A stretch of 64,000 nt of DNA, taken from Thermodesulfovibrionia bacterium. GTDB lineage: Bacteria; Nitrospirota; Thermodesulfovibrionia; JACRGW01. The position numbers and the translations under genes are program-made. Below the pieces are notes generated by a model. That model was not told the origin of the DNA. It ran no database searches and saw only the letters and a list, made by a program, of their open reading frames with translations. Location of the stretch: NCBI GenBank assembly GCA_919902995.1, contig CAKKSD010000050.1, positions 14,499-78,498 on the forward strand, written 5' to 3'. Each line of letters opens with the position of its first letter. Positions within the stretch are counted from its first letter, which is position 1. This document shows positions 4,512 to 36,048 of this stretch, piece by piece.

Positions 4512-6044
4512 ATGAGATCATCCGCTCCTAAAAGTATAAATTTCTATCTCCCTTCTTTCTCAGGAATCCTCCTGATACTCATATTCCCTAAATTCGATCT
4601 TGAATTGGTTGCCTGGGTAGCGCTGGTTCCACTCCTCCTTTCTATCTCGATGACTGATGATCGAAAGACTGCCTTTCATTCAGGGTTCATCGCAGGTTTT
4701 ATCTATTTCTTGGGAACAACCTACTGGGTAGTGAATTCTATATACTATTACGGTCATCTCCCTTTTTTTCTGAGTGTCATGATCCTCTTGGGTATGGTTG
4801 TAACCCTGAGTCTTTATATTGGTCTATTCAGCTTTCTCTATCACTTTATTTTAAAAAATATACCCCTACCTTCCTCTCTTATTGCACCACTCCTCTGGAC
4901 ATCAATAGAGTTTGTGAGGACCTATCTACTTTCAGGATTCCCCTGGTCGAGTCTCGGTTATTCTCAGTATAGATCCCTTCCTGTAATTCAGATTGCGGAT
5001 GTTACAGGGATCTATGGAATTTCCTTCCTTATAGTTGCAATAAATGCGGCTATAGTTGATTTCTTCATGTTTAGAAAAACTAAGAGGATGTCTCTTATCC
5101 TTGGGCCCGTCCTCTCTATAATCCTTCTTGTCGTCACCTTAGGATATGGTTTTCTGGCACTTAAAGAATCAGATGCAGGTAAAGTTATTAAGATAAGTCT
5201 TGTACAGGGCAATATTGAACAGGATATGAAATGGAACCAGAAATATCAGAGGGAAGTCTTCAATGCATATCTGAGACTTACAAGGGATTCATTAAGTCAT
5301 AATCCTGATATTGTAATCTGGCCAGAGGCCTCAACACCCTTTTACTTTGGAAGGGATAAGGAATATACCGATGAACTTACCAGTTTTGTTAAGGAGCATA
5401 AAATCTACCTCCTTTTCGGAACACCAAGGGTTAAATCATTTGAAAAGGGAAGATATACTCTGGCAAATAGTGCCTATCTCTTATTCCCTTCTGGAGAAAT
5501 TAAAGGTATTTATGATAAAATACATTTAGTCCCTTTCGGGGAGTATGTCCCGATGAAGAGTGTACTCTTCTTCGTAGATAAACTCGTAGTGGCAATTGGA
5601 GACTTCTCGCCTGGAGAAAGATATGAGGTCTTCGAGACTCCAAAGGGGAAATTTGGACTGGTCATATGTTATGAGATAATATTCCCTGGGCTGGTAAGGA
5701 AATTTGTTAAAGGAGGTGCTGATTTTATTGCCACGATCACAAATGATGCATGGTTTGGGAATACCGCTGCCCCCTATCAGCATTTCAGCATGGCAGTTCT
5801 GAGGGCTGTTGAAAACAGGGTCTCTATAGCAAGGGCTGCTAATACAGGTGTCTCAGGATTTATTGATTCCAAAGGGAGGATCTTAAAGGCAAGTGGAATA
5901 TTTCATGAAGGAACATATACAGGCGACATAAGAATAGGGCCAAGAAAAACATTTTATACAACGTATGGGGATATATTCACATATGTATGTCTTGGTTTGA
6001 CCGTTGGGTTTTATTTTTTGGCTATGGCGTATAAAAAACCTTAA
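4512..6044 (+). CDS. lnt: Apolipoprotein N-acyltransferase
   Basis: Multi-TM N-terminal domain plus a C-terminal CN-hydrolase domain with the catalytic Cys in VICYEIIFP. The start is placed at the MRSS... ATG at 4512, because the ORF-track start at 4446 adds a non-conserved leader. Confidence 0.8.
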   Translation: MRSSAPKSINFYLPSFSGILLILIFPKFDLELVAWVALVPLLLSISMTDDRKTAFHSGFIAGFIYFLGTTYWVVNSIYYYGHLPFFLSVMILLGMVVTLSLYIGLFSFLYHFILKNIPLPSSLIAPLLWTSIEFVRTYLLSGFPWSSLGYSQYRSLPVIQIADVTGIYGISFLIVAINAAIVDFFMFRKTKRMSLILGPVLSIILLVVTLGYGFLALKESDAGKVIKISLVQGNIEQDMKWNQKYQREVFNAYLRLTRDSLSHNPDIVIWPEASTPFYFGRDKEYTDELTSFVKEHKIYLLFGTPRVKSFEKGRYTLANSAYLLFPSGEIKGIYDKIHLVPFGEYVPMKSVLFFVDKLVVAIGDFSPGERYEVFETPKGKFGLVICYEIIFPGLVRKFVKGGADFIATITNDAWFGNTAAPYQHFSMAVLRAVENRVSIARAANTGVSGFIDSKGRILKASGIFHEGTYTGDIRIGPRKTFYTTYGDIFTYVCLGLTVGFYFLAMAYKKP

Positions 6045-6048
6045 AATT

Positions 6049-6105
6049 GTCATGCTGAACTCGTTTCAGCATCTACTTGAGATTCTGAAATAAATTCAGA
6101 ATGAC
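6049..6105. repeat. Hairpin-repeat cluster downstream of lnt
   Basis: GTC-ATGCTGAA-ctcgt-TTCAGCAT-CT and G-ATTCTGAA-ataaa-TTCAGAAT-GAC, both perfect 8-bp stems. Confidence 0.55.
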
Positions 6106-6131
6106 ACAAAAGAAAACTATGGAGGTTATCA

Positions 6132-7230
6132 ATGTTAGACGAAGAATCGAGAGAGATAGAAGAACTCGAAACAAGGCTCAATACCCTCAGGGGGTATCTT
6201 TGAAATAGAAAAGAAAGAAAGCAGAATAAAGGAGATAGAGAAGATGATGGAAGCCCAGGATTTCTGGGAGAATGTTCCTTCTGCCCACGCCCTTCTGAAA
6301 GAGAAGTCCACACTTGAAGTGTCAATCAATAATTTCTATTACCTTCAGGGAAGGCTTGAAGACCTTGAGATAATGATCGAGCTTTCAGAGGAAGAAGAAG
6401 ATACATTTATATCAGAAATAGAAAAGGGTCTTAAAGAATTAAACAGTGAATTCCAGAAGATCGAAATAGAAACAATGTTAAGCGGTGAGAAGGACAGTCA
6501 TAATGCCATCGTCTCGATCCATCCCGGGGCTGGTGGTACAGAATCTCAGGACTGGGCACAGATGCTCATGCGCATGTACCTCAGGTGGGCAGACAGTCAT
6601 AATTTCAAGACTGAAATCATTGATATTCTTCCCGGAGAAGAGGCGGGTATTAAGAGTGTCACTATTATGGTCGCAGGTGAATATGCCTATGGTTACTTGA
6701 AGGCAGAGGCAGGGATCCATCGCCTCGTAAGGATTTCTCCTTTCGATGCAAGCAAACGCAGACATACATCGTTCGCTTCAGTATTTGTTCATCCTGAGAT
6801 AGAAGAAGACATAGAAATTGACATAAAGGATGATGATTTAAGGATCGAGACCTTCAGGGCAAGTGGTGCAGGCGGTCAGCATGTGAATAAGACATCTTCT
6901 GCAGTAAGGATAACCCATATTCCTACAGGGGTTGTTGTTCAGTGCCAGAACGAAAGGTCACAGCATAAGAACAAGGCGACCGCCATGAAGGTATTGCGGT
7001 CAAAACTCTATGAACTCAAGGAGGAAGAGCAGGCTAAGAAGATGGAAGAGATTTTAAGCGAGAAAAAGGAGATCGCCTGGGGAAGCCAGATACGCTCCTA
7101 TATCCTCCAGCCCTACCAGATGGTCAAAGACCACAGGACAAACCTCGAGGTCGGAAATGTAAACGCTGTCCTCGACGGAGACATAGACCAGTTCATTGAT
7201 GCCTATCTGTTACAGGAAGTCACCAAGTAA
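6132..7230 (+). CDS. prfB: Peptide chain release factor 2 with programmed +1 ribosomal frameshift (frame 0 6132-6200, shift at CTT TGA 6198-6203, +1 frame 6202-7230)
   Basis: The frame-0 ORF MLDEESREIEELETRLNTLRGYL ends at an in-frame TGA at 6201-6203. It is preceded by AGGGGG (6189-6194), a Shine-Dalgarno-like element, and then TAT CTT TGA. The +1 frame continues into the RF2 body with SPFDASKRRHTSFASVFVHPE and the GGQ motif RASGAGGQHVN. This is the canonical prfB autoregulatory site. Confidence 0.85.
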
Positions 7231-7246
7231 TCCCATCCCTCAACTT

Positions 7247-7756
7247 TTAACCCATCATTTCATCAATATCAAACCATTTCTGATCTGCCAAAATTATAGA
7301 GGTCTCAATTTGGCTTTCGGGAATTGACCAGTATTTCCTAAGCAATCTATCCTTTTCCTCTGTGGAAACCAAACGGAAATCATGTTTCTCATAGAATTTA
7401 ATAGCCCAAACAGCATCTGCCCAGGTACCAATTAATATCGGTCTATCTGTTTGCTTACAAAGATATGATAACAATTCCCCTCCTATGCCTTGATTTTGTC
7501 TCTTCCTTTGCACATAGGAGTGTCTGATTAGGGTTATATCTTGAACATCCTGGATTCCCATCACACCAATCAACTCCCTTCCTTCTTCGTATCCCCAGAA
7601 TACAACACCACTTTTTATCTCATGATGAAGTTCTACTTCAGACATATAAGGTTCTTTCCAGCAGTCTGCAGGGATTATACCTTTATATACCTTTGAAGCA
7701 TCATTTATTACTGAAAGGATAACATTGAACTCGCTTTTATTGCATAGACGTATCAT
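7247..7756 (-). CDS. GNAT family N-acetyltransferase
   Basis: 169 aa with an acetyl-CoA-binding motif RKRQNQGIGGELL typical of GNAT folds. Confidence 0.7.
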   Translation of the reverse strand: MIRLCNKSEFNVILSVINDASKVYKGIIPADCWKEPYMSEVELHHEIKSGVVFWGYEEGRELIGVMGIQDVQDITLIRHSYVQRKRQNQGIGGELLSYLCKQTDRPILIGTWADAVWAIKFYEKHDFRLVSTEEKDRLLRKYWSIPESQIETSIILADQKWFDIDEMMG

Positions 7757-7792
7757 AATTCTTATCCTGACTAAGAGTGGATGGTATAACTT

Positions 7793-8347
7793 TCAAGCTA
7801 AATGTTCAATCAATATTTTTATTCCAATACCGATTAATATCATACCTCCAACCACCTCTATTTTATTCTCAAAGAAATGTCCGAATCTATCTCCTACATA
7901 AACTCCTATGAATGATAGTAAAAATGTTATGACTCCGATTATTATTGCAGGATTTATAATCGAAATATCTAAGATCGAAAGGGTTAACCCTACTGCCAAT
8001 GCATCAATACTTGTTGCAATAGAAAGTATCAATATTACATAGATATTCAGTGGATCTAATTTCTTATCTGGATTCATCCTGGTCGATTCAAAAATCATTT
8101 TAAAACCGATCATACTTAGCAGTCCGAAGGCAATCCAGTGGTCAATGCCTGAAATAATATCTCTTAACCCTATGCCTGCCAACCACCCCACCACTGGCAT
8201 AATTGCCTGAAATAATCCGAAGAATGCTGCGAGCCTGAGGGCATGCTGGATTCTGAGATATTTAATTGTAAATCCACTTGCGACAGATACCGCAAAGGCG
8301 TCCATAGCCAGTCCTAAGGCTACAAATAGAATCGTAATTATATCCAT
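7793..8347 (-). CDS. mntP: Manganese efflux pump MntP (DUF204 family)
   Basis: 184 aa with six TM segments. The N-terminus reads LGLAMDAFAVSVASG, and duplicated DA motifs are characteristic of MntP. Confidence 0.8.
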   Translation of the reverse strand: MDIITILFVALGLAMDAFAVSVASGFTIKYLRIQHALRLAAFFGLFQAIMPVVGWLAGIGLRDIISGIDHWIAFGLLSMIGFKMIFESTRMNPDKKLDPLNIYVILILSIATSIDALAVGLTLSILDISIINPAIIIGVITFLLSFIGVYVGDRFGHFFENKIEVVGGMILIGIGIKILIEHLA

Positions 8348-8441
8348 TTATTATTTCGATTTAAACTTTATATCATTTAAAAACATTTTACAATAGTATC
8401 AGCATGTTAAAAGAGAATTGATAAGCTGTTTAATTTAGTCC

Positions 8442-8470
8442 TTGACATTCTTTGTAACATATGTTACAAT
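8442..8470 (+). promoter_or_regulatory. Near-consensus sigma70-type promoter for the ChrB-like gene (TTGACA-17-TACAAT)
   Basis: TTGACA at 8442-8447, a 17-nt spacer, then TACAAT at 8465-8470. Confidence 0.45.
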
Positions 8471-8488
8471 TATATCATATGTTACATA
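8452..8488. promoter_or_regulatory. Perfect 18-bp palindrome TTGTAACATATGTTACAA plus adjacent half-site copy (candidate operator overlapping spacer/-10)
   Basis: Positions 8452-8469 are self-complementary. Positions 8470-8488 (tTATATCATATGTTACAtaa) repeat the right half, CATATGTTACA. The core resembles the GAAC-N4-GTTC class of boxes but with TAAC arms. Confidence 0.4.
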
Positions 8489-8494
8489 ACAAAT

Positions 8495-8532
8495 CCCGCA
8501 CCTTCCAACGGGGTATTCTGTGAAGGTGCGGG
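8495..8532 (+). promoter_or_regulatory. Leader stem-loop (11-bp perfect stem CCCGCACCTTC/GAAGGTGCGGG) sequestering the first candidate start codon (GTG 8520) of the ChrB-like gene
   Basis: Inverted repeat at 8495-8505 and 8522-8532 with a 16-nt loop. It lies between the predicted TSS and the ATG at 8541. Confidence 0.35.
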
Positions 8533-8540
8533 ATAAACTC

Positions 8541-9506
8541 ATGGGCTGGCTACTGATATTTTACACGGTTCCCTCAAGGCCTGTAAGTAACAGGATGAGA
8601 ATATGGCGGAGGCTCTCAAAGATAGGTGCAGTTCAGCTCAAGGGTGCTGTTTACATACTCCCATACAACGAGGGAAACTATGAGTTCTGCCAGTGGGTTG
8701 TATCAGAGGTCTCATCAATGGGAGGTGAAGGGACATTCGTTAAGATAAAGACGATCGAGACAATGAAAGAGGCTGAGATAATCAATCTATTCAATTCTCA
8801 GAGGGAAATGGATTATCACAATATTTCAAAGGGGCTTGAAGATCTTGGTAGAAAAATCGAAAGTATAAGAAAGGGAGGCCGAACAAAAGACGCCAGGATA
8901 TTTCATGAGGAACACGGCAGATATGAAAAAGAGTTTAAAGAAATACGGAAGATAGACTTCTTCTCATCAAAGGCCGGAAGTACTTTAGAAAAGAGGCTTA
9001 AAGAACTGTACGGAAAAATCAGGGGCATATCGGGGATAGCCCCAAAGGAAAAGGGGATTGCCATAGTGCTAAAAAATATCAGGGACTATAGGAACAGGAT
9101 ATGGGTCACCCGAAAAAGGCCTTTTGTGGACAGGATGGCATCTGCCTGGCTGATAAAGAGATTCATAGATAAGAATGCCCAGATCAAGTTTATTGATGAA
9201 AGGGACATGAAGGGTTTGGACAAGGATTTAGTCACCTTTGATATACAGGAAGGAGAATTTACCCATGCGGCTGATATGTGCACCTTTGAAGTACTTCTAA
9301 AATCGTTCAATATTAAGGACAGGACATTAAAAAAGATCGCTGAGATTGTCCATGAGATTGATATAAGGGATGACAGATATAAGAACCCTGAAACCATCGG
9401 GATAGAGGACATATTAACAGGGATAAGGAAGGTTACTATCGATGACCAAGAGGCCCTTGAAAAAGGGATGTCTTTATTTGAGATGCTCTACGCATCAAAA
9501 ACTTAA
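8541..9506 (+). CDS. ChrB-like protein (ChrB_N plus Chrome_Resist C-terminal domain), putative oxyanion/metal-sensing regulator
   Basis: The N-terminal motif W..LY..P..PS..R.R.WR.L...GAV.L...V..LP and the C-terminal motif WVTRKRPFVDRMASAWLIKRFID both match the ChrB family. An alternative GTG start lies at 8520. Confidence 0.6.
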   Translation: MGWLLIFYTVPSRPVSNRMRIWRRLSKIGAVQLKGAVYILPYNEGNYEFCQWVVSEVSSMGGEGTFVKIKTIETMKEAEIINLFNSQREMDYHNISKGLEDLGRKIESIRKGGRTKDARIFHEEHGRYEKEFKEIRKIDFFSSKAGSTLEKRLKELYGKIRGISGIAPKEKGIAIVLKNIRDYRNRIWVTRKRPFVDRMASAWLIKRFIDKNAQIKFIDERDMKGLDKDLVTFDIQEGEFTHAADMCTFEVLLKSFNIKDRTLKKIAEIVHEIDIRDDRYKNPETIGIEDILTGIRKVTIDDQEALEKGMSLFEMLYASKT

Positions 9507-9524
9507 AAAAAGGAGGAAACGAAT

Positions 9525-9809
9525 ATGCCGCCAATTAATGACCATTTAAAGGTAAGTATGGAAAGGACAGGAAAGGATTATAGGGAGGTTCATGAATGGC
9601 TTGATGGAGACCCTGAGAAGAAGGCTGAAAGACATGACATTACAAAGATTCATGAGTATGGAAAGACAATAGAAGAAAAATACGGGAAGGAGGCACTTCA
9701 GGAATATATACAGCACATTCATGACGATGTGAAGGCAAAGTTTAATCACATACAGCATGACTTAGAAAAGGCAGTTACAGATGCGCTGGTATATTTTGGG
9801 GTGAAGTAG
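9525..9809 (+). CDS. Hypothetical small His-rich protein
   Basis: 94 aa with AAGGAGG 6 nt upstream of the ATG. It has many His/Asp/Glu pairs (HEWLDG, HDDV, HIQHD), suggesting metal binding, and sits 18 nt after the ChrB-like gene, so it is likely co-transcribed. Confidence 0.5.
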   Translation: MPPINDHLKVSMERTGKDYREVHEWLDGDPEKKAERHDITKIHEYGKTIEEKYGKEALQEYIQHIHDDVKAKFNHIQHDLEKAVTDALVYFGVK

Positions 9810-9826
9810 CGTAAATTTGTTTAAGT

Positions 9827-9977
9827 GTCATTCCTGCGGAAGCAGGAATCCAGAATAATGTCATTCCGCACTTGATGCGGAATCCAGTTCCTTAATAAGT
9901 AATAGATTCTCTATTATACGGAGACTTCACCTGTAAGCAAAGGAAGGCCACTGGATTCCCACTTTCGTGGGAATGAC
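9827..9977. repeat. Hairpin-repeat cluster (type cluster): three units GTCATTCC-stem-loop-GGAATCCAG, two forward and one inverted
   Basis: Unit 9827-9853 is GTCATTCCTGCGGAAGCAGGAATCCAG. Unit 9860-9887 is GTCATTCCGCACTTGATGCGGAATCCAG. Unit 9951-9977 is CTGGATTCCCACTTTCGTGGGAATGAC. Confidence 0.7.
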
Positions 9978-10003
9978 AAAAACGAGCTCAATCGGAGGAA
10001 ATT

Positions 10004-10558
10004 ATGACTTATAATATTCAAGACTCAGACATTGACCTTCTCAGAAATGCAGGGGTCTCTGAGGACGACATAAAACACTGTGTAAATGTAGCAGAAAAGG
10101 CATTAGAAATTGCAGAACGAACTGGCGCAAATGTTGACCTGGAACTCATCGGTAGGGGTGCCTTATTTCACGACCTCGGCAAAGCAATAACACATGAGAT
10201 TGAACATGGAAAGATCGGTGCCGAGATTGGGAATCATTTAGGACTTTCAAAGGAAATTACAGATATAATGGAGAAACACATCAGGGGAGGACTGACAGAA
10301 GAAGAGGCAAGAGAACTCGGATTGCCTGTAAAAGACTACACCCTCAGGACATTAGAAGAAAGGATTGTGATTTACTCTGACAGACTTGCAGATATAATCA
10401 TGGATGGCATTGTTGATATTAGAGGGGATGAACTGGAGGCTGAAAGGAGATTTGAGGAGATACTCATGGAATATCCGAAATACGGAAAGAATGAAAAAAC
10501 CCTGAATCGGTATATTGTATATCACAGGGAGATGCAGGGGTTGATGGGTAGCAAATAA
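10004..10558 (+). CDS. HD-domain (HDIG-type) metal-dependent phosphohydrolase
   Basis: 184 aa with the HD motif in LFHDLGK and downstream His/Asp residues. It is flanked on both sides by repeat clusters. Confidence 0.7.
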   Translation: MTYNIQDSDIDLLRNAGVSEDDIKHCVNVAEKALEIAERTGANVDLELIGRGALFHDLGKAITHEIEHGKIGAEIGNHLGLSKEITDIMEKHIRGGLTEEEARELGLPVKDYTLRTLEERIVIYSDRLADIIMDGIVDIRGDELEAERRFEEILMEYPKYGKNEKTLNRYIVYHREMQGLMGSK

Positions 10559-13501: not shown

Positions 13502-14509
13502 TTAAGAGCTTCTTAGTATATAAAGTAATATCAGATTTATCAAATATATCAACAATATCCCTATAGAATCCCATGCTAAGAGTAATCGCTTCTTCTCGGC
13601 ACGGTAGGTCAGACCGATAATTGCAATCGTAATCATGGCAATGGCTGACAAAGCAGATATTATATGATTTGGACTAACAAAGGAAAGAATCGGACCTTTA
13701 GTAAAAAAGATATCGTCAATGGCAAGGATGAAGATATTAAATATATTGCTTCCAAAGAGATTGCCTATTGCAAGGTCTATTGCATCCATTTTCACTGCTG
13801 CAAAGGAAACAACAACCTCCGGAAGTGATGTAGAAAGGGCTATAAAGATATTGCCTACAAATGTCTGTCCAAGACCAGTCGTTTCTGCAATGCCTTTACC
13901 TATCTTTGGTAGAAAAGTGGCAGCAACTATAATAAAGACAGCATTTATGCTATAGTTTATAATAGCAGTCTTAGTTGAGACATTCCCGTATTTCAATACA
14001 ACCTCCATCTCTTTCATAAATAAAGATATCTGCCTTTTTTCGTAGGTATAAATTAATCTCATAGCAATGAAATAGACAATAATGAAAAATAGTGTGTAAG
14101 AACCGATCCAGCCAAATGGTAAAATTCGGATTCCAAAAAACATGCTTATTCCAACAACTGATAAAAGCAGTATCCCAAATCCGGCAGAGATTACATGGCC
14201 ATGATGTGCCCTGGTAGATATAGGGGCTGGACGATAAATAGCATCAAGAAAAGCAAGGATAAGCATATTGAACACACAGCTTCCAAGCACATCTCCTACT
14301 GCGATGTCAGGTACACCAGCATAGGTAACAGAGCTTATCCCTGTAACAAGTTCAGGGAGGGATGTAACAGATGCCATGAGGACCACACCTATCCATGTTC
14401 TGCCAAGACCAGATTTTTCGGCAATGATATCACCGTATTTTGAAAGCCTTGTTCCTGAATAAAATATTACAGATGTACATACTATAAATCCTATCCAGAG
14501 GAGCATCAC
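13502..14509 (-). CDS. Sodium/calcium exchanger family (CaCA, YrbG-like) membrane protein
   Basis: 335 aa with two alpha-repeat regions carrying GSS/GNxxG-type motifs (LPELVTGISSV ... GNLFGSNIFNI). Confidence 0.8.
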   Translation of the reverse strand: MMLLWIGFIVCTSVIFYSGTRLSKYGDIIAEKSGLGRTWIGVVLMASVTSLPELVTGISSVTYAGVPDIAVGDVLGSCVFNMLILAFLDAIYRPAPISTRAHHGHVISAGFGILLLSVVGISMFFGIRILPFGWIGSYTLFFIIVYFIAMRLIYTYEKRQISLFMKEMEVVLKYGNVSTKTAIINYSINAVFIIVAATFLPKIGKGIAETTGLGQTFVGNIFIALSTSLPEVVVSFAAVKMDAIDLAIGNLFGSNIFNIFILAIDDIFFTKGPILSFVSPNHIISALSAIAMITIAIIGLTYRAEKKRLLLAWDSIGILLIYLINLILLYILRSS

Positions 14510-16491
14510 ACCTCATCCCTGAAATATTTCATTGCCACATCCATATTCTTCTTTTCACCTGTAAATATTATAATATCTCCTTCTTTGAACCTGAAATCTG
14601 GTTCAGGGTTTGTAAAAACATTCGTGCCTCTCCTTACGGCTATGATTGTAACCCCGGTTATTTTCCTTACCTGAAGCTCTGCTATACTTCTCCTCACTAA
14701 ATGTGAATCCTCAGATACTTTATAGCCATCCACTTTAATTTCAGGAAGCCATTCATATTTTTCAAAAACATGCCTCCTTGGAAGTTCCACTTTTCTCAAC
14801 ATTGTATAACTATCACTCCTCACCTTATCAACCATATCAAGTATAATATTATTCGGGAAATTGTACTTATGAAGGACCCTTGAAAATATCTCTACCGATG
14901 TCTCAAACTCCTCAGGTATCACTTCATCTGCACCGAGTTCCCTCAGGTCATCTACCTCAACAAGGTATCTTGTCCTTACGATGATATAGATATCCGGGTT
15001 TTCATGTCTTGCAATAGCCACAATCCTCCTTGCGGAAGCAGGGTCTGATATGGCTATAACAAGTAGCCTTGCCTTTTCAATGCCGAGTTTATGAAGTATC
15101 TCTTTGGATGTCCCGTCACCATAATATATCGGCTCTCCTTTTTTCCTCATCTCTTTTACTGTATCGCTATTCATCTCAAGCACAACATAATGGACATCAG
15201 CCTCTTTCAATACCCTTGCAAGGTTCCTCCCGTTAAGTCCAAAACCGATAATTATTACATGGTCCTGTCTTTTCCGTGGGAAACCTTCTCTTTCTGAAAT
15301 CATTTTAAGTCTGCTAACCCTTTTCAATAGATGCCTCGATGTTATCCAGCCAGATATTGAAGGTGCAACATTCAGGACAAAGGGCGTAATCATCATCGTT
15401 AAGACTGAAGATGAAAGGAAAATCTGATAGAATTCTTCTGTTATAATACTCAATGCCTTTCCTGCAATTGCAAGTACAAAAGAAAACTCTCCGATCTGAG
15501 CAAGTCCGAGACCTGTATGGATAGAAGTCCTCAGCGGGCTTCCTATCATCAGGGCAGAAAACATGCCGGTTATTACCTTGAGTCCAAATATTAGTACAAC
15601 AGCAAGGCCTATCTTGAAAAGATTATCAGAGACATAACCTATATCCATTAGCATTCCGACAGAAACAAAAAAAAGGCCTATGAAGCTGTCCTTAAACGGC
15701 ATTATATCCGCTGTTGCCTGATGTGCATACTCTGATTCTGATACTATAAGGCCGGCTAAAAATGCTCCAAGCGCCAAAGAAAGGCCAAACCTTGAGGTTA
15801 AGAGTGCTATGCCGAGGCAGAGGAGTATTATTGTGGTTATAAAAAGCTCCCGGCTTTTCGTATGCACAACCTGGTGAAGGAGTCTCGGGACCAGCCATCT
15901 TGCACTGAGAAGTACAACCGCTATAATCAAAGCAGCCTTCCCCATTTTGATTGCAACCTCCATTATGTCTATCCCCTCTCCCGACAAGGCTGGAGTAAGT
16001 AGCATTAGAGGCACAACACAGAGATCCTGAAAAATAATTATTCCTACCATTATCCGCCCGTGTGGGGAATCTGTTTCACCTTTTTCAGCAAGTAACTTGA
16101 AGACAATTGCGGTACTGCTCAATGCAACAAGAAACCCGAAGAAAACAGACCTATTGATGTTCCCTGTCACAAAATAGAAAGCGATAGCTGATAGACTTAT
16201 AGTAAACAATACCTGTATGCCACCGCCTCCTATCACAGTCTTCCTCATCCTTAAGAGTTTTGCCATGGAGAACTCGATGCCAATGATGAAAAGAAGAAGT
16301 ATTACACCAATTTCGGCAAGCAACTCAACAGAATGGGTATCTTTTACAATTCCTATACCATGAGGACCTATGATGGCACCTGCAACAAGAAAGCCTACAA
16401 TGGAGGGTATCTTCAACCTATGGAGTAAAAATACTACTAAGGCAGAGACACCGAAGATAATAACCAGCGATTTTAAAAATTCGGATTCCAT
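14506..16491 (-). CDS. Kef-type monovalent cation:proton antiporter (CPA2) with C-terminal TrkA-N/TrkA-C (RCK) domains
   Basis: 661 aa with a membrane domain, a Rossmann motif IIIGFGLNGRNLA, and a C-terminal RCK_C. Its stop overlaps the CaCA start (ATGA), so the two genes are translationally coupled. Confidence 0.8.
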   Translation of the reverse strand: MESEFLKSLVIIFGVSALVVFLLHRLKIPSIVGFLVAGAIIGPHGIGIVKDTHSVELLAEIGVILLLFIIGIEFSMAKLLRMRKTVIGGGGIQVLFTISLSAIAFYFVTGNINRSVFFGFLVALSSTAIVFKLLAEKGETDSPHGRIMVGIIIFQDLCVVPLMLLTPALSGEGIDIMEVAIKMGKAALIIAVVLLSARWLVPRLLHQVVHTKSRELFITTIILLCLGIALLTSRFGLSLALGAFLAGLIVSESEYAHQATADIMPFKDSFIGLFFVSVGMLMDIGYVSDNLFKIGLAVVLIFGLKVITGMFSALMIGSPLRTSIHTGLGLAQIGEFSFVLAIAGKALSIITEEFYQIFLSSSVLTMMITPFVLNVAPSISGWITSRHLLKRVSRLKMISEREGFPRKRQDHVIIIGFGLNGRNLARVLKEADVHYVVLEMNSDTVKEMRKKGEPIYYGDGTSKEILHKLGIEKARLLVIAISDPASARRIVAIARHENPDIYIIVRTRYLVEVDDLRELGADEVIPEEFETSVEIFSRVLHKYNFPNNIILDMVDKVRSDSYTMLRKVELPRRHVFEKYEWLPEIKVDGYKVSEDSHLVRRSIAELQVRKITGVTIIAVRRGTNVFTNPEPDFRFKEGDIIIFTGEKKNMDVAMKYFRDEV

Positions 16492-16512
16492 GTTATTATA
16501 GTAGCATAAATC

Positions 16513-16659
16513 ATGTTCTACTTTTATGCAATTTGGTCAGCAATCCTTAATTCTTACAGAAAATGCCCTATATGCAGAAGGATTCAACACTTTAAAGGCA
16601 AAAAGAAGGGAGATAGTGTCAGATGTAAAAAATGCGGCTATCAGTTTGTGCTGAAATAA
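16513..16659 (+). CDS. Candidate small zinc-ribbon protein (48 aa, CxxC...CxxC)
   Basis: The ORF MFYFYAIWSAILNSYRKCPICRRIQHFKGKKKGDSVRCKKCGYQFVLK is followed by an intrinsic terminator. It is below the ORF-track length cutoff. Confidence 0.3.
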   Translation: MFYFYAIWSAILNSYRKCPICRRIQHFKGKKKGDSVRCKKCGYQFVLK

Positions 16660-16689
16660 CTTACTCTTCACCTTTCATTAAATTTATAT

Positions 16690-16726
16690 GCCCCGCTGCT
16701 TTCAGCGGGTGGGAAACCTTTTTTTA
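16690..16726 (+). terminator. Rho-independent terminator-like hairpin plus T7 run
   Basis: CCCGCTG-ctttc-CAGCGGG followed by tgggaaaccTTTTTTT. Confidence 0.45.
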
Positions 16727-16731
16727 GTTTT

Positions 16732-16824
16732 GTCATTCCCGTGAAACTTGTCCTCGACTGCGATCGGGGAACGGGAATCCAGAGACATACAAAATACTGG
16801 ATTCCGCATCAAGTGCGGAATGAC
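16732..16824. repeat. Hairpin-repeat cluster: a long unit (51 bp) plus an inverted unit identical to the reverse complement of unit 9860-9887
   Basis: GTCATTCCCGT...ACGGGAATCCAG spans 16732-16782. CTGGATTCCGCATCAAGTGCGGAATGAC spans 16797-16824 and is the exact reverse complement of 9860-9887. Confidence 0.7.
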
Positions 16825-16924
16825 GACGGTGTTTGTTTTTTAGTTCATGATACCCCACTGCTTGCTGCGAGGAGGTTCATTGTAAATCGTAATAATACAT
16901 AGTTCTATGCTGAATGGGATCTCT

Positions 16925-16950
16925 TATAAATCCTATCCAGAGAAGCACTA
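16925..16950 (-). other. Duplicated fragment of the CaCA gene 5' end (about 30 bp direct repeat with 14483-14516)
   Basis: tataaatcctatccagagAagca... matches the sequence at 14483. On the minus strand it encodes VLLWIGFI..., matching the CaCA N-terminus MMLLWIGFIV, then diverges and stops after 23 codons. Confidence 0.45.
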
Positions 16951-17568
16951 TACCTCTTTCCCCTTAAACATCTTCAACCTGTAATAGGCCTCCCTTTCCC
17001 TCTCTCCGATATACTGGGAGATTGTCTTTATCTGATTTCTGAGGTCAGGCTGTATCCTTTCTTCAAGAACCCGTATTCTCCTTGTTATCCTAAGAATCTC
17101 ATCACCGAGCCTTTTCAGTTTACTCTCGAAGGTTGAGATCTCAAGCATCGTAGCAACGATAGATTCAAAGCGATGGGTACATTCATCAAGATGTGGTGTA
17201 GTGGAGAGGTAGTCATAACCCCTCTCTTCGGGAGACCTAACAAGTGTTTCGTGTACTACTACATCCCTGTACTTCAGTCCCCAGATGCTCTTTTCGTTTA
17301 TCTCAACTCCTAATTCCCTTTTGGTAACTGCTGTTATTGACTCAATGCAGTCCTTCCCCTCATGTCCAAGGCTAAGTTTCAGTTCTTCGATAGCCTTTCC
17401 ATATGTCTTTCTTATCTCCTCCCTCGACCTCAGAAAGGGAAGGGTTGTATTAAGAAATTCCTTTATAAGGGCCTGTCTCCTTGCCTTGAGAATCCCTATA
17501 CTGTTTGTAACTGACCGCGATTTTTCCTTAAGTATTAATAGATTTGTCCTTGTAGGGTGTATTATCAT
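16948..17568 (-). CDS. V-type (A/V) ATP synthase subunit D
   Basis: 206 aa. The N-terminus MIIHPTRTNLL.LK....S...G..LK.RR.AL matches the PTRM.L motif, and the C-terminus ...RITRRIRVLEERIQP.....I..I...ERE..YRLK matches NtpD/AtpD of V-ATPases across the full length. Confidence 0.85.
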   Translation of the reverse strand: MIIHPTRTNLLILKEKSRSVTNSIGILKARRQALIKEFLNTTLPFLRSREEIRKTYGKAIEELKLSLGHEGKDCIESITAVTKRELGVEINEKSIWGLKYRDVVVHETLVRSPEERGYDYLSTTPHLDECTHRFESIVATMLEISTFESKLKRLGDEILRITRRIRVLEERIQPDLRNQIKTISQYIGEREREAYYRLKMFKGKEV

Positions 17569-17705
17569 CCTTTATTTATATGGCATGAAAAACATTCATC
17601 ATTTGTAAATGCATAAGATGGAACCGGCAGAAAGAAGATGAAGAATAAAAGTAGGAGAAACCCATGTGTCATGATTTTATTCCACAGAATCGATAGCTAT
17701 CATAC

Positions 17706-18716
17706 CTATTTCTTTTTAGGAAAAAAATAATCAATATTCGATTCTATGTACCCTTCGTATGCCACAACCAGTTCTACTTTTAAAGGTGTGACCTTCATTA
17801 ACTCCAGAAGTATATTAGGGTCCTGAGGTTGTGAAGTGGCTACAACAAGAATATCCTTTCCTTTCTTTTCAACTGGAATCACCTCTAACTTCCTCACAAC
17901 CTCTTCAGGTAAAATTGTAGCGACCTCTTTTGAAATACTCTTATCGGACAAATCTACCCATGGCAAATGAAGTTGAGTCGCCAAGGCAATACAGATATCA
18001 TTCGGTGTAAGATATTTAAGATCCACTAAGATTTGTCCCAATTTTTTCTTCGTATGCTCATGCTGGATGTTAAGTGCATTATCCAGTTGCTCATTTGAAA
18101 TGTAACCAGCCCCCATTAAAATCTCTCCTAATAAATTAGGTGTTTCCTTCTGTTTCTGCAAAGATTCATGCAATTGTTTTTGATTTATGATCTTCTTCTC
18201 TTGTAGAATAGAGCCAATTTTTTTCTCCCGCATCTTTCTCTGCTCCATGAGACCACTATTCAACCGTTGAATATCGATCTTTTTCTGATCAAGCAAGATT
18301 TTCCCTAAAAGCCTTTTTGAATCGATATTTTTTACTGCTTCGGCATTAACATAAATCCTCTCACTTTTATCTCCTGGATTAAGAGGAATCAAAAAGAATC
18401 CTTTATCGTTAGGATCATATTTAATAGTAGAACCGGTAATTATAGTGCCATCTTTTAATTCAATGGCAAGTTTAAAGGCCACTGTGCTCGCAAACATGGA
18501 TTGATCTATTGTTTCTGTTCGCAAAGGTGATCTTGTCTCGCCCTCTTTTTTTAAAAATAAAATCTCCTTTACTGAATCTATCTTTACTGTTTCAGTCTCT
18601 GTTGTTCCGTCTTCATTTTCGGTCTGCATGTGAAAGGTAGGTTGATTCATATGGAAGGAGTAAACAATTCCCCTTTTTTCTTCTCCGGAAAGAAATTTAA
18701 CTATAACTTTTGACAT
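17706..18716 (-). CDS. MshEN-type c-di-GMP-binding domain plus T2SSE_N (GspE N-terminal) domain protein without ATPase; N-terminal duplicated small beta domain
   Basis: Two tandem 24-aa MshEN motifs, KIGSILQEKKIINQKQLHESLQKQ and LLGEILMGAGYISNEQLDNALNIQ, are separated by a 5-aa spacer. They are followed by a GspE_N-like region, LATQLHLPWVDL...VVATSQPQDPNILLEL. Confidence 0.7.
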   Translation of the reverse strand: MSKVIVKFLSGEEKRGIVYSFHMNQPTFHMQTENEDGTTETETVKIDSVKEILFLKKEGETRSPLRTETIDQSMFASTVAFKLAIELKDGTIITGSTIKYDPNDKGFFLIPLNPGDKSERIYVNAEAVKNIDSKRLLGKILLDQKKIDIQRLNSGLMEQRKMREKKIGSILQEKKIINQKQLHESLQKQKETPNLLGEILMGAGYISNEQLDNALNIQHEHTKKKLGQILVDLKYLTPNDICIALATQLHLPWVDLSDKSISKEVATILPEEVVRKLEVIPVEKKGKDILVVATSQPQDPNILLELMKVTPLKVELVVAYEGYIESNIDYFFPKKK

Positions 18717-18721
18717 AGTAA

Positions 18722-18886
18722 TTAATTATACAATATGGACATACACATTTCGAGAAAATAAGGTCTTTCCCCAGAAATCCTATTTCTCCTCAAGACGAAA
18801 CCTCCAGACCTCCTCTTCTCACCATCGAGTGTATCCTGAATTTCTTTCTCAACCTCTATTACCTTTGTCAGTATATCCTTTTCCAT
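18722..18886 (-). CDS. Candidate small ORF (54 aa) immediately upstream of the MshEN gene; N-terminal half helical (MEKDILTKVIEVEKEIQDTLDGEKRR)
   Basis: The ORF ends 5 nt before the MshEN start. It has no clear SD, and its N-terminus loosely resembles a peripheral-stalk-type coiled coil. This call is very tentative. Confidence 0.2.
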   Translation of the reverse strand: MEKDILTKVIEVEKEIQDTLDGEKRRSGGFVLRRNRISGERPYFLEMCMSILYN

Positions 18887-18893
18887 CTTATAT

Positions 18894-18930
18894 AAAAACA
18901 GAGGGGTAACCTATAACGGTTACCCCTTTA
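18894..18930 (-). terminator. Rho-independent terminator for the repeat protein gene (bidirectionally palindromic)
   Basis: GAGGGGTAACC-tataac-GGTTACCCC, with TGTTTTTAT following on the minus strand. Confidence 0.55.
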
Positions 18931-18970
18931 CAATTTACGAGGTATCTGATCACAAACATAAAGTGATTTT

Positions 18971-19459
18971 CTATCTCCAATGTCCTGGAACCCAGCGGCC
19001 GCCTGGTCCACGACGTCCCGGCACCCACTTCTTCCCCCGGGGTGGTTCTCCCTTCCAGTGACCGGGAATCCATTTATCATCTTCCCAGTGACCAGGAACC
19101 CAATGAGCACCTGTGCCTGGTGATTGCATCGCCTTCCAGTGGCCTGCTACCCATCTTTTACCATCCCAGTAACCAGGAACCCATTCCTTGCCTGGCGGAG
19201 GAGGTGTTGGGTCAGGCACCCATTTACCTTCTACCCAGATATACGGTCCTTCTCCAGGCGGTGAGTCAACAGGTATCCATTTCCCTTCCGTTTTCACCCA
19301 TACTTTACCTGGAGGCGGTGGCTCTTTAGGTACCGCCATCGAAGAAGTACTTAAGAAAAAGAACAAAGATGCACTAAAAAGCGATATAAACATAACCTTA
19401 ATAAAGAACCGTTGATCAGTTCTTTTCCCTAACATTTCATTCTGCTTACTCCCTTCCAT
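18971..19459 (-). CDS. Secreted Pro/Trp-rich repeat protein with at least 6 copies of K/R-W-[VI]-P-G-[HY]-W
   Basis: There is GGAGG 6 nt upstream of the ATG. A positively charged N-region, a hydrophobic stretch and SMA-VP form a signal peptide, followed by PPPPG and repeats KWIPV, YIWVEGKW, EWVPGYW, RWVAGHW, HWVPGHW, KWIPGHW, KWVPG and RWVPGHW. Confidence 0.6.
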   Translation of the reverse strand: MEGSKQNEMLGKRTDQRFFIKVMFISLFSASLFFFLSTSSMAVPKEPPPPGKVWVKTEGKWIPVDSPPGEGPYIWVEGKWVPDPTPPPPGKEWVPGYWDGKRWVAGHWKAMQSPGTGAHWVPGHWEDDKWIPGHWKGEPPRGKKWVPGRRGPGGRWVPGHWR

Positions 19460-19507
19460 AGAACCTCCTTTCTCTGCCTTCTGCAGTAAGTTAAAATATT
19501 ATCTCTA

Positions 19508-20485
19508 TCATCCTTCTGTACCCTCTTCAAAGGTACCGATTCTTCTAAATTTCTCATATCTTCTGTTTATAAGCTCATCAATTGGCATTTGGAAAAGACC
19601 CCTCAAGTTTCTTTTTATTGCCTCTCCCAGGGTCTCGGCTGTTTCGTTAGGATTTCTGTGGGCTCCCCCTAATGGTTCCTTAATTATCTCATCCACTATC
19701 CCCAAATTAAAAAGTTCCTGGGCAGTTAGTTTCAGCGCCTCTGCTGCTCTATCGATCTCATCCTGATCTACAGACTGTCCATCCTTCTTCCATAGGATAG
19801 CGGCACACCCCTCAGGGGAAATAACAGAATATACAGAGTGCTCAAGCATAAGAATTCTATCACCAACACCCAATGCCAGTGCCCCACCACTTCCACCTTC
19901 ACCTATCACTACTACAATAATGGGCATTCTGATGGTTACCATCTCCTTAAGATTCCTGGCTATTGCCTCTCCCTGCCCCCTCTCTTCAGCCCCTATTCCG
20001 GGATATGCCCCGGGTGTATCAACAAAGGTGATAACGGGTTTCTGAAATTTCTCTGCCAGTTTCATAACTCTTAGTGCCTTACGGTTACCCTCCGGATGGG
20101 GCTGTCCGAAGTTTCTGTATATCCTTTCTCTCGTTCCTCTCCCCTTCTGATGACCTATCACTATCACAGGAATTCTATCGAGCCGTGCAAGGCCAGCCAT
20201 AATAGAGGGGTCATCTCCGAAGAAACGGTCTCCATGAATCTCTATAAAATCCTCCATAAGAAAGTCTACGTAATCAGTTGTGTAAGGTCTCGATGGATGA
20301 CGGGCTGTTAGGGTCTTCTGCCATGGAGTAAGGTGAGAATATATCTCCACCATTAAACCCTCTGCCTTTTGCTCGAGCCTCTGAATCTCTTCGATGCTCT
20401 TGCCATCAGAGAGACGTCTGAGTTCTTCAATCCTTTTATTTATCTCGGCAACAGGTTTTTCAAAATCTAAATAGTCAATAGTCAT
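19508..20485 (-). CDS. accA: Acetyl-CoA carboxylase carboxyltransferase subunit alpha
   Basis: 325 aa; the full-length profile, including the [12 protein letters not shown]-terminus and carboxyltransferase motifs, matches AccA. Confidence 0.9.
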
Positions 20486-29714: not shown

Positions 29715-31172
29715 TTAAACAGGGATTGTCTTTTTTTCTATGAGTCTGAGAGCTACTTCAGCAATAGAGGGATCGAACTGGGTCTTTGAAAATTTCCTGA
29801 GTTCTTTGATTACCCTTGTTATAGAGAGGACATCCCTGTAGTATCTCTTTGAGGTCATAGCCTCGATGGTATCTGCAACACAGAGAATCCTTGCCCCAAG
29901 AAATATCTCTTCTCCCTTCAGACCATCAGGATAACCTTTTCCATCATAACGTTCGTGGTGGTGACGGATAGATTTTGTGATTTCTTCCGAGAAACCTATT
30001 GGTTGAAGTATCCTTTCCCCGTGGAGCGGATGCTCTTTCATTATATTATACTCTTTGTTGGTGAGCTTACCGGGTTTATAGAGTACCTGCTCTTTAATCC
30101 CTATCTTTCCTACATCATGGAGGATACCGGCTATATGCATCTCTTCTATCTTTTCTTTTGACAGTCCCATCTCCCCAGCTATTGCGATGGCATATTTTGC
30201 AACCTGTGCCGAATGGCCTTTTGTATAAGGATCTTTTGCCTCTATTGCGGCAGCGAGGGCCGAAATGGTCTTAAAGTAATTTTCTCTGATCTCTTCATAG
30301 AGTTTGTTGTTTTCCAGAGAGACAGTCAGCTGTCCTGCAATAATCGAGAATAGATCGAGATCGCCCTTTGTAAAGGGAGAGAGCTGGTCAATCTTGCTGA
30401 TGTTTATGACGCCGAGGTTTTTCCCCTTTATTATAAGAGGCACACACATGCCTGCATTTATTTCGTGAAGTCCTATTGCGTCTTTTAATGCAGGATTGCT
30501 ATAGCCTTCATTATTAACGACAATTCCTTCACCTGTTCGTAAAACCCAGCCCGAAATACCTTCCCCTATCCCTGTCCTTGACCCTTTTACCCTTTCAGAA
30601 AACATTCCGCTCGATGCCCTTACAACAAGCTCCTGTGTACCCTCGTCTAAAAGCATTATTGAGATCCTGTCTGCCTTAATCTCTGAAAGTGCAACCTTCA
30701 TTATTGCATCGAATATATCATCCTGCCGCATGTCCTTAATCAATACCCTATTGACCTCAAGGAGTGGTATCAGTGCTTTCAACCGCATATTCTCCTTTAT
30801 AAGGCGTCCCTTCTCAAGGGCATTTTCAACCATATTTATCAATTCATTGCGTTTGAATGGCTTAAGGACAAAACCTTCTATTCCCATTTTTAAAGACTCT
30901 ATGGCTGATTCTATGGTTCCCTGACCGGTAATTACCACAGTCGTTATATCATCCCTAATCTTCTTTACAGCCTGATAGACCTCCAGGCCACTCATTCCGG
31001 GCATATTCAGATCAGTGAGAAGCAGATCAAAGGAATTCCTTTTTGCCTCTTCTACCGCTTTGGTACCCTCATTAACAGTAGTAACATCATAGCCTTCTTC
31101 GATAAGTATCTGGGCACAGAGGTTACCAACTACTTCTTCGTCATCAACAACTAAAACCGTTCTCTTATTCAA
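29715..31172 (-). CDS. Response regulator with REC-GAF-HD-GYP architecture (c-di-GMP phosphodiesterase)
   Basis: The REC domain has the phospho-acceptor D in LLLTDLNMPGMSG. The HD-GYP domain has HDVGK and HHERYDGKGYP. Confidence 0.8.
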   Translation of the reverse strand: MNKRTVLVVDDEEVVGNLCAQILIEEGYDVTTVNEGTKAVEEAKRNSFDLLLTDLNMPGMSGLEVYQAVKKIRDDITTVVITGQGTIESAIESLKMGIEGFVLKPFKRNELINMVENALEKGRLIKENMRLKALIPLLEVNRVLIKDMRQDDIFDAIMKVALSEIKADRISIMLLDEGTQELVVRASSGMFSERVKGSRTGIGEGISGWVLRTGEGIVVNNEGYSNPALKDAIGLHEINAGMCVPLIIKGKNLGVINISKIDQLSPFTKGDLDLFSIIAGQLTVSLENNKLYEEIRENYFKTISALAAAIEAKDPYTKGHSAQVAKYAIAIAGEMGLSKEKIEEMHIAGILHDVGKIGIKEQVLYKPGKLTNKEYNIMKEHPLHGERILQPIGFSEEITKSIRHHHERYDGKGYPDGLKGEEIFLGARILCVADTIEAMTSKRYYRDVLSITRVIKELRKFSKTQFDPSIAEVALRLIEKKTIPV

Positions 31173-34989: not shown

Positions 34990-35676
34990 ATGGAAGAAGC
35001 GCCTTTAATATTCCATATAAATGGTGTCCCGCCTTATGTGACCTATTCCTGGGTTGCGATGGTTATTCTTATCGCCTTCTCTATCATTGTGAGGAAAAGA
35101 CTCGCACTCCTTCCTTCTGGAATTCAGAATGTTGCAGAGATTGCGATTGAGGGTCTCTATAACTTTACCGAGGGGAATATGGGCCATAGGGCTAACAGGA
35201 TTTTCTTCCCCTTAATAGGGACACTGGGTTTCTATATTCTTATATGTAATCTTATGGGCCTTGTACCTGGCTTTGAATCACCCACAAGTAATCTGAATAC
35301 GAATGCTGCCATGGCTGTCTGTGTGTTTCTTTCCACACATTTCCTCGGAATCAGGATCCATGGTTTAAAATACTTCGGACATTTTTTTGGACCAATAAGG
35401 TCCATACCGGCTATACCTCTTATGCTACTCATCTTCATTATCGAGATTATAGCCCATCTCGCAAGACCTGTCACCCTTTCTGTAAGGCTCTTCGGGAATA
35501 TGATCTCAAAACATATGATCCTTTTGATACTTGCTATACTTGTACCTATGATTTTACCAACTACCATCTTGGCTCTTGGTGTACTTGTGAGTGTGGTTCA
35601 GGCATTTGTTTTTCTCCTGCTGTCGACCCTTTATCTGGCAGGTGCCGCGGAGGCAGAAGAACATGAAGGAGATTAA
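34990..35676 (+). CDS. atpB: F0F1 ATP synthase subunit a
   Basis: 228 aa with 5-6 TMs and the conserved Arg in the LSVRLFGNM motif. Confidence 0.85.
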   Translation: MEEAPLIFHINGVPPYVTYSWVAMVILIAFSIIVRKRLALLPSGIQNVAEIAIEGLYNFTEGNMGHRANRIFFPLIGTLGFYILICNLMGLVPGFESPTSNLNTNAAMAVCVFLSTHFLGIRIHGLKYFGHFFGPIRSIPAIPLMLLIFIIEIIAHLARPVTLSVRLFGNMISKHMILLILAILVPMILPTTILALGVLVSVVQAFVFLLLSTLYLAGAAEAEEHEGD

Positions 35677-35700
35677 ATTCCTACGGAAAGGAGGAGAATT

Positions 35701-36048
35701 ATGAAAAAAACCTTAATAGTAACCCTCATCTTCTTAATCCTTTTTAGTTTTATGTCACCCTTAGCCTTCGCTCAAGAGGCTGCTAAATCTGAAGGAACGA
35801 TTAGTTACTTTACTATGGCGGTATTGGCCTGCGGTTTGGCAATAGGTATTGCTGCCTTTGGAACGGGCATTGCTCAGGGCATAGGCATCGGGAAGGCTGT
35901 TGAAGGAATTGCACGTAACCCAGGTGCCTCGGGTAAGATTACGATGACCCTTGTTATCGGCCTTGCTATGATAGAATCCCTCGCAATATACGCCCTCGTA
36001 GTTGTATTGATTGTCTTTTTCCTTGATCCATTTAAGTTTCTCAAATAA
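35701..36048 (+). CDS. atpE: F0F1 ATP synthase subunit c with N-terminal signal-peptide-like extension
   Basis: A hairpin of two TMs with GxGxGxG packing ([20 protein letters not shown]) and an ion-binding acidic residue in IESLAIYAL. It is preceded by [27 protein letters not shown]. Confidence 0.85.

Follow-up and report, generated by a model that had tools for sequence, protein, structure and literature searches.

The window analysed here is a 64,000-nucleotide (nt) stretch of DNA from a Thermodesulfovibrionia bacterium of the Nitrospirota (GenBank assembly GCA_919902995.1, contig CAKKSD010000050.1, positions 14,499 to 78,498 of the forward strand), and its feature of interest is an intact gene for subunit D of a V/A-type ATPase (16948 to 17568, minus strand). 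This gene, the last of a former operon, now lies downstream of a gene for a protein with an MshEN domain, a domain known to bind cyclic di-GMP (c-di-GMP). The D protein (206 amino acids [aa]; MEK6691372.1) and the MshEN protein (MEK6691373.1; AABY78_08780) are encoded by a Nitrospirota metagenome-assembled genome (MAG) from the groundwater of Hainich well H51, and both genes as well as a 54-aa open reading frame (ORF) preceding them are on the minus strand. The original prediction, made from the letters of the window, held that the 206-aa ORF corresponds from end to end to V/A-type subunit D and that no other V-ATPase subunit is encoded alongside it, and both statements stand. The Pfam profile ATP-synt_D (PF01813) covers residues 9 to 202 (profile positions 1 to 195 of 196; E = 1.6e-37; 129.7 bits, cut-off 25.7), and the NCBIfam profile TIGR00309 (V-ATPase subunit D) scored 109.7 bits (cut-off 72.25), so that the protein matches the full-length family profiles above their curated cut-offs. 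A tblastn search of the 64 kb with the full subunit sets of three canonical operons found no other V-ATPase subunit and matched just D and the first 24 to 28 codons of the 54-aa ORF. Pfam searches of the larger ORFs of the window likewise returned no further V-ATPase subunit, the products being those of housekeeping genes.

The D protein is 68 to 76% identical to those encoded at the end of canonical operons in three related loci, L006, L008, and L009 (related loci are designated by L and a number), where the gene order is (105-aa gene)-I-K-E-C-F-A-B-D. The V/A-ATPase operon of Thermus reads G-I-L-E-C-F-A-B-D, and the order in the relatives equals it. The first operon gene matched archaeal subunit H weakly (E = 2.8e-4, under the cut-off), and from its position we infer that it encodes a small peripheral-stalk subunit of the Thermus G/archaeal H type (here G/H; ~107 aa when intact). 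A metagenome scan with D revealed B-D adjacency in 12 further loci, all of them plain B-D, with D identities of 62 to 80%. Among close relatives, D is 86 to 92% identical to the window protein and the flanks are shared: the region of D and the CPA2 cation:proton antiporter gene shows ~86 to 89% nucleotide identity between the window and L023 or L028, and the same holds for the accA region with L028 or L091. The window D is thus orthologous to the terminal D of complete operons (68 to 89% identity in L006, L008, L009, L023, and L091), and it is the original copy, because the synteny of D with the CPA2 antiporter gene is common to the relatives.

At least six structural alleles of the accA...CPA2 interval (16948 to 19507 in the window) occur among closely related, partly co-occurring strains: (i) L023, from the sister MAG AABY44 of the same well (D and antiporter genes each ~86% identical in nucleotides to those of the window), has the full operon with cytochrome and radical-SAM (rSAM) cargo, I-K-E-C-F-A-B-cytc (323 aa, multihaem)-cytb-216 aa-B12/radical SAM-D-CPA2 antiporter, and a close homologue of subunit A, MEK6693188.1, belongs to this sister MAG and not to AABY78; (ii) L091 reads dnaE-accA-G/H-I-K-E-C-F-A-(TA)-B-'cytb-216-rSAM-D, with a PIN toxin-antitoxin (TA) pair between A and B, and fixes the left flank; (iii) L024, which has the same pair, reads A-(TA)-B-methyltransferase-D, with a methyltransferase gene between B and D; (iv) L088, the nearest MshEN relative (76% identity), is a 2.3-kb contig without D on it that reads B-3'end-MshEN-cytc-cytb, the MshEN gene directly following B; (v) L028 reads accA-G/H-(I codons 1-50 fused to cytb codon ~147)-216-rSAM-D-CPA2-PEPC, an independent deletion of the ATPase core from I through B that kept D; and (vi) the window and strain L090 share a doubly deleted form. 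Since L023, L091, L028, and L024 carry operon genes there, the accA...CPA2 interval is the home of the operon, structurally hypervariable and, in this clade, with cargo between B and D.

This cargo is itself of mixed descent. In L023 (positions 5857 to 10004), and also in L027, L028, L091, and, upstream of D, L026, a four-gene cassette between B and D is translationally coupled to D. It encodes a multihaem cytochrome c with a C-terminal transmembrane helix, a cytochrome b (Ni_hydr_CYTB-like), a 216-aa protein without a family, and a TIGR04190 B12/radical-SAM enzyme. The cassette is a recombination mosaic, since the first 42 aa of cytochrome b (L088, 2190 to 2315) are 98% identical between L088 and L023 and the neighbouring cytochrome c just 72%. 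On the accA side, the window and L090 have a gene for a 162-aa secreted protein of WxxGxW/PPPG repeats (18971 to 19459, minus strand; dN/dS against L090, 0.32), located between accA and the 54-aa ORF and absent from L028 and L091, where the operon directly follows accA.

Two junctions in the window record what became of the operon. The first is the 54-aa ORF (18722 to 18886, minus strand), which ends 5 nt upstream of the MshEN gene and which PGAP does not call as a gene. The original prediction had placed a possible small helical ORF at this position; the ORF exists, but it is a scar and not a gene. Its codons 1 to 26 (18809 to 18886, minus strand) are those of the first operon gene, G/H, as shown by tblastn matches to the corresponding genes of L006, L008, and L009 (lowest E, 5e-5) and by alignment of the nucleotides to the complete gene in L028 and L091. 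They are followed, out of frame, by the last ~7 codons of subunit B (FRLEEK) and its stop codon (18780 to 18808, minus strand), which align with the end of B just ahead of the MshEN gene in L088, and then by the B-MshEN spacer. The L090 version of this scar is a 58-aa ORF whose tail differs. The second junction lies in the gap between the MshEN gene and D. A 35-codon stump of a multihaem cytochrome c gene (17565 to 17672, minus strand), comprising the signal peptide and the first CxxCH, ends there in a TGA that overlaps the ATG of D (ATGA); in L023 and L028, the stop codon of the radical-SAM gene overlaps the ATG of D in the same way. An alignment pairs the stump, MTHGFLLLLFFIFFLPVPSYAFTNDECFSCHINKG, with the N-terminal ends of the 323-aa cytochromes encoded in L088 and L023 (for L088, MTHGF...SYAFTNDECFSCHINKG in the window versus ...SFAFTNDECYSCHGKKG).

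Both junctions are at identical positions in L090, which comes from the same JGI sample, has a D protein 94% identical to that of the window, and is ~8% diverged from it in nucleotides. By inspection, 4-nt microhomologies, GGAG and GATG, are present at the junctions. Transposon-like inverted repeats were looked for on either side of the MshEN gene and not found, and insertion by a mobile element was rejected as the mechanism on this ground. Counted by eye, six of the eight changes between the cytochrome c stumps of the window and L090 are nonsynonymous. Disrupted frames or relaxed selection, the marks of a pseudogene, were thus seen in the G/H::B scar and in the cytochrome c stump and not in D. 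Reductive operon decay by microhomology-mediated deletion is a general phenomenon, and the window resembles it in its clean breakpoints, its leftover gene stumps, and the several independent deletion alleles of the locus among co-occurring strains; it differs in that the surviving terminal gene is not decaying and is as constrained as in the operon-bearing relatives.

Set against the Thermus-type operon, which is intact in L006, L008, L009, L023, and L091, the window locus still has the terminal gene as an orthologue, keeps scars of both the G/H-type gene (5' end) and B (3' end), which lie in the order and direction that the operon would predict, and preserves the stop-start coupling at the ATG of D. 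Seven and a half genes are gone (the rest of G/H, I, K, E, C, F, A, and most of B), the clade has foreign cargo between B and D, and in the window D is kept alone and under selection. The sequences show that the gene is the original subunit D of a V/A-ATPase operon that underwent two deletions and that it is still selected; taken together with an ordinary use of D, which is the likely part, we consider this account quite probable. A V/A-type ATPase operon once stood between accA and the CPA2 antiporter gene. In a genus-level clade of groundwater Nitrospirota, this operon (G/H-I-K-E-C-F-A-B...D) gained between B and D the MshEN gene and the genes for a multihaem cytochrome c, a cytochrome b, a 216-aa protein, and a B12/radical-SAM enzyme. 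The MshEN gene is placed between B and the cytochrome because L088 reads B-MshEN-cytc-cytb, and the ancestor would then have been G/H-I-K-E-C-F-A-B-MshEN-cytc-cytb-216-rSAM-D. One deletion began at codon 27 of the first gene and stopped about 7 codons short of the end of B, and the other extended from codon 36 of the cytochrome c gene to the end of the radical-SAM gene, joined exactly at the ATG of D. These left over the scar ORF, the MshEN gene together with its likely promoter, the 35-codon cytochrome stump, and D, and translation of D would be coupled to the stump ORF as it formerly was to the gene upstream.

The D gene is not decaying. Between the window and L090, D differs by 13 nonsynonymous and 32 synonymous changes, with nonsynonymous (dN) and synonymous (dS) divergences of 0.0275 and 0.282 and a ratio (omega) of 0.097, and the MshEN gene gave almost the same values (omega, 0.090; dS, 0.283). 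Under neutrality, ~35 of the 45 changes in D would be expected to be nonsynonymous (p = 3e-12). When codon changes were polarised with outgroups, the window lineage had 10 synonymous and 5 nonsynonymous changes and the L090 lineage had 17 and 6. Between operon-bearing relatives, omega of D is 0.04 to 0.09, which the value in the orphan state equals. Thirteen of the 13 D variants in the 90% identity cluster are intact (205 to 206 aa), and only about two substitutions, T92N and P109L, are specific to the clade. The D gene has therefore been under strong purifying selection since the deletions, the same as the MshEN gene, and the cell still uses D. The original prediction had allowed that D might be a recent pseudo-duplicate; the synteny that marks it as the original copy, together with the purifying selection, contradicts this.

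Recombinational import of D from operon-bearing strains was considered as a source of the low omega and largely rejected, because the L090 gene was as close or closer to the window D than to those of the operon-bearing relatives in six of seven 150-nt segments; in segment 451 to 600, it was marginally closer to L026 (92.7%) than to the window (92.0%). The non-coding spacers flanking the MshEN gene are strongly diverged between the window and L090, and the junctions are for this reason regarded as old. One block of 300 nt (18832 to 19131), which takes in the 3' end of the WxxGxW gene, the terminator hairpin, and the greater part of the G/H stump, shows no difference between the two (100% identity), the rest differing by 5 to 10%; this pattern indicates either recent recombination or conversion or an unexplained constraint.

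Transcription of D can be traced to a likely unit. A consensus scan identified a promoter-like TCGAAA-17-TATAAT (18725 to 18753, minus strand; 10 of 12 matches) that ends 8 nt before the ATG of the MshEN gene, implying, if it is used, an mRNA that is leaderless or nearly so. Both hexamers are kept in L088 and L090, while the flanking spacer has diverged. The scan of the coding strand agrees with the earlier observation that the 137-bp gap between the MshEN gene and D has no obvious terminator. Terminator-like hairpins lie outside, one with a T-run (18902 to 18927, minus strand) that closes the upstream accA/WxxGxW unit and is kept ahead of the intact operon in L028 and the other 127 nt past the stop codon of D (16801 to 16821, minus strand), the likely 3' end of the transcript. 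Given a promoter-like site before the MshEN gene, a gap without a terminator, and hairpins on either side, MshEN, stump, and D likely form one transcript driven by that site. Transcription of D would then probably start at the MshEN promoter, and translation probably passes from the stump, as a leader ORF, into D by stop-start coupling. Two other candidates for control of D were rejected. An Rfam search of positions 16000 to 20000 matched no family, which ruled out a riboswitch in the gap, including a c-di-GMP riboswitch, and a separate promoter for D, within the 39 nt before it that are perfectly conserved, was dismissed, as the candidate -10 element is not kept in L090.

The region beyond D has been rearranged as well. 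The downstream hairpin is part of an insertion of ~240 nt with REP-like hairpins (GTCATTCCGCACTTGATGCGGAATCC...) at 16690 to 16930, which separates D from the antiporter gene. L090 and L023 lack this insertion and have 38 nt between the two genes. A 29-nt copy of the REP-like hairpin is found at 9860 to 9888. The 23 nt directly after the stop codon of D (16925 to 16947) duplicate positions 14483 to 14505 at 95.7% identity, that is, the junction between the end of the antiporter gene and the start of a Na/Ca-exchanger gene. Both copies encode the same N-terminus, LLWIGFI, and the stump is also present in L090; it is probably another small rearrangement scar. On the opposite strand, just upstream of the antiporter gene, a 48-aa zinc-ribbon ORF (CPIC...CKKC; 16513 to 16659, plus strand) is kept in L090.

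The product of the neighbouring gene (336 aa; 17706 to 18716, minus strand) is, by family matches and an AF2 model, a candidate stand-alone c-di-GMP receptor. It contains DUF6982 (residues 2 to 131), NF053729 (residues 196 to 248; 92.6 bits, cut-off 38), and Pfam MshEN (residues 250 to 333), and no Pfam or NCBIfam profile revealed an ATPase domain in it, in line with the original prediction of a co-directional upstream MshEN gene without one. The two MshEN motifs had been described as textbook examples. Two 24-residue motifs separated by a short spacer are indeed present (residues 195 to 218 and 225 to 248) and come close to the published consensus, but they depart from its strict form: motif I starts with LLG and not RLG, thus lacking the Arg, and motif II has Lys and not Gly at position 10. 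Neither the strict regular expression nor the authors' relaxed one (motif consensus from PMC5013675) matches the protein, while the NF053729 profile is well above its cut-off. Domain membership rests on profile and fold, and c-di-GMP binding is a prediction.

The AF2 model of this protein (pLDDT 79, built on 29 homologues) has the four-helix bundle and the GspE_N-type alpha/beta fold in its C-terminal ~140 aa, which match chain B of 5HTL, the Vibrio cholerae MshE N-domain with c-di-GMP (E = 1.8e-9; TM score, 0.69; 31% identity). The N-terminus is modelled as two small beta-barrels (DUF6982) with weak Sm/Tudor-like matches, and a helical linker with degenerate MshEN-like motifs lies between these and the complete MshEN domain. 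The linker motifs form a second tandem pair at residues ~135 to 190 (18150 to 18320, minus strand), LLGKILLDQKKIDIQRLNSGLMEQ-RKMRE-KKIGSILQEKKIINQKQLHESLQKQ, with a 5-residue spacer; both lack the Gly at position 10 and are modelled at low confidence (pLDDT 52 to 72). What the known MshEN-domain receptors, such as the MshE N-domain (5HTL), the T. thermophilus PilF GSPII domains, and NfrB (PMC5013675, PMC11731258), have in common with the window protein is a tandem-motif domain of 53 residues and, after it, a GspE_N-like fold. The window protein differs from them in having no attached ATPase or glycosyltransferase output domain, in its two N-terminal beta-barrels, and in the extra degenerate motif pair upstream. 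The sole other candidate c-di-GMP signalling gene noticed in the window (29715 to 31172, minus strand) encodes a response regulator-GAF-HD protein (HD_5/HD-GYP-like), possibly a c-di-GMP phosphodiesterase.

As to the present use of D, an ordinary role as the rotor stalk of putative V1 subunits encoded elsewhere in the genome would be the most likely one, and a new free-standing role less likely, because both the level and the pattern of constraint on D are unchanged. A copy of G/H through B without D is conceivable elsewhere in the genome, as D sits 1 to 5 kb distal to B in the clade. Several points weigh against this reading. Every related genome examined has its only visible operon at this same locus, and the independent loss of I through B in L028 points to an enzyme that can be dispensed with and speaks against a copy moved elsewhere. 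The search for subunits covered the 64-kb window, and the partners A3B3, F, and C elsewhere are putative. The ancestral position of the MshEN gene between B and cytochrome c is taken from the single 2.3-kb contig L088, and the promoter, the co-transcription, and the translational coupling are read from sequence. Finally, recombination acts here, as the zero-divergence left flank of the first deletion indicates, and it could blur the dating of the deletions.

If the V-ATPase was instead lost altogether, D may have been exapted, in a FliJ-like manner, to a new client and be co-expressed from one promoter with the MshEN protein, formerly encoded within the operon, and possibly controlled by c-di-GMP, an outcome that we regard as unlikely. 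To our knowledge, FliJ/YscO proteins are the only precedent for a D/gamma-like protein acting outside a rotary membrane ATPase. These coiled-coil stalk proteins of type III export ATPases (PMC3665681, PMC6367419) are, like the window D, encoded without a rotor partner such as F, and FliJ is reported to be able to take the place of the DF rotor in A3B3 (PMC3665681). The window protein, on the other hand, is by sequence a bona fide V-type D that keeps the globular middle region, and no FliI-like ATPase is encoded near it in the window; the analogy is a lead only.

It is rather improbable that the two genes form a dedicated signalling module, in which the MshEN protein would sense c-di-GMP and act through or on a free-standing D that plugs or activates a hexameric ATPase as FliJ does, independently of any V-ATPase. 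Such a module would fit with the survival of both genes through two deletions, their probable co-transcription, their equal purifying selection (omega, 0.09 to 0.10), and the place of the MshEN gene inside the operon in its nearest relative, L088. The V1 core has moreover been lost at the locus in two lineages, which makes a hidden second operon less likely, and the FliJ substitution reported in PMC3665681 makes stalk proteins interchangeable in principle. A conserved pairing of D with MshEN, which the original prediction had proposed as a check, was sought by scanning with a profile a set of genomes in which each species has one representative (that of the window has none), and the option of a regulatory module failed there. 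The 36 full-length members of the MshEN family (48 to 65% identity; Nitrospirota, Aminicenantes, Omnitrophota, Ratteibacteria, and others) had a V-ATPase subunit within 8 kb on either side in 0 of the 36 genomes; no neighbour is conserved among them and the surroundings are highly variable. Adjacency of D and MshEN was confined to the window clade (L001 to L005 and L090). The few clade-specific substitutions in D came without the burst or the domain-specific relaxation that a change of partner predicts, and the 64-kb window encodes no candidate hexameric ATPase of a type II secretion system (T2SS), type IV pilus (T4P), or type III secretion system (T3SS). The deletions, for their part, fully account for the adjacency. 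Because the relatives carry the whole operon at this site and both deletion junctions are readable, the adjacency is a by-product of operon remodelling and not an ancient functional pair; of the two options between which the original prediction had not chosen, the remnant of a remodelled ATPase operon is the one supported.

That D might be a dead relic, functionless and not yet decayed, its low dN/dS reflecting a recent or recombinational spread of the deletion allele, is very improbable. The remainder of the operon is gone from the locus, and, with an F-type ATP synthase present, loss of the V-ATPase could be tolerated. The genes atpB (34990 to 35676, plus strand) and atpE (35701 to 36048, plus strand), already noticed in the original prediction, were both found by Pfam. 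The independent loss in L028 also kept D, and the identical 300-nt block beside the first junction testifies that recombination occurs. However, two strains with both junctions differ by a dS of 0.28 within D itself, the deficit of nonsynonymous changes among their 45 differences is far beyond chance, the excess of synonymous changes is seen on each lineage separately, the strongly diverged spacers around the MshEN gene point to old junctions, and every one of the clustered variants keeps the full ORF. As an observation apart, atpB and atpE (34990 to 36048, plus strand) stand without the rest of the atp operon, gltX coming next, so the F-type operon is split in this genome.

A chimera of assembly or binning, conceivable since the window derives from a MAG, is practically negligible, as the same junctions and an identical D protein recur in five independent assemblies (JGI, ENA, and Logan), the junctions are found again in the ~8% diverged strain L090, and at least five further assemblies have D and MshEN cluster members on equally long contigs; an artefact of assembly does not explain the arrangement. 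L003 (2889 to 3899), assembled at 4x coverage from the same strain, has the MshEN gene broken into ORFs of 206 and 106 aa, which is probably an assembly or sequencing frameshift.

Taken as the remains of an operon, the locus mostly reflects ordinary operon decay and genome dynamics, which account for everything but an orphan stalk subunit that is still selected. Its value lies, in the first place, in an unusually clean, base-pair-resolved case of operon remodelling, in which cargo (a c-di-GMP receptor, cytochromes, a radical-SAM enzyme, and a toxin-antitoxin pair) entered a rotary-ATPase operon between B and D and was later lost piece by piece. The second point of value is that the isolated stalk subunit D is still strongly constrained. 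Should A and B really be missing from the genome, no earlier case would be known of a V-type D that works outside a rotary ATPase.

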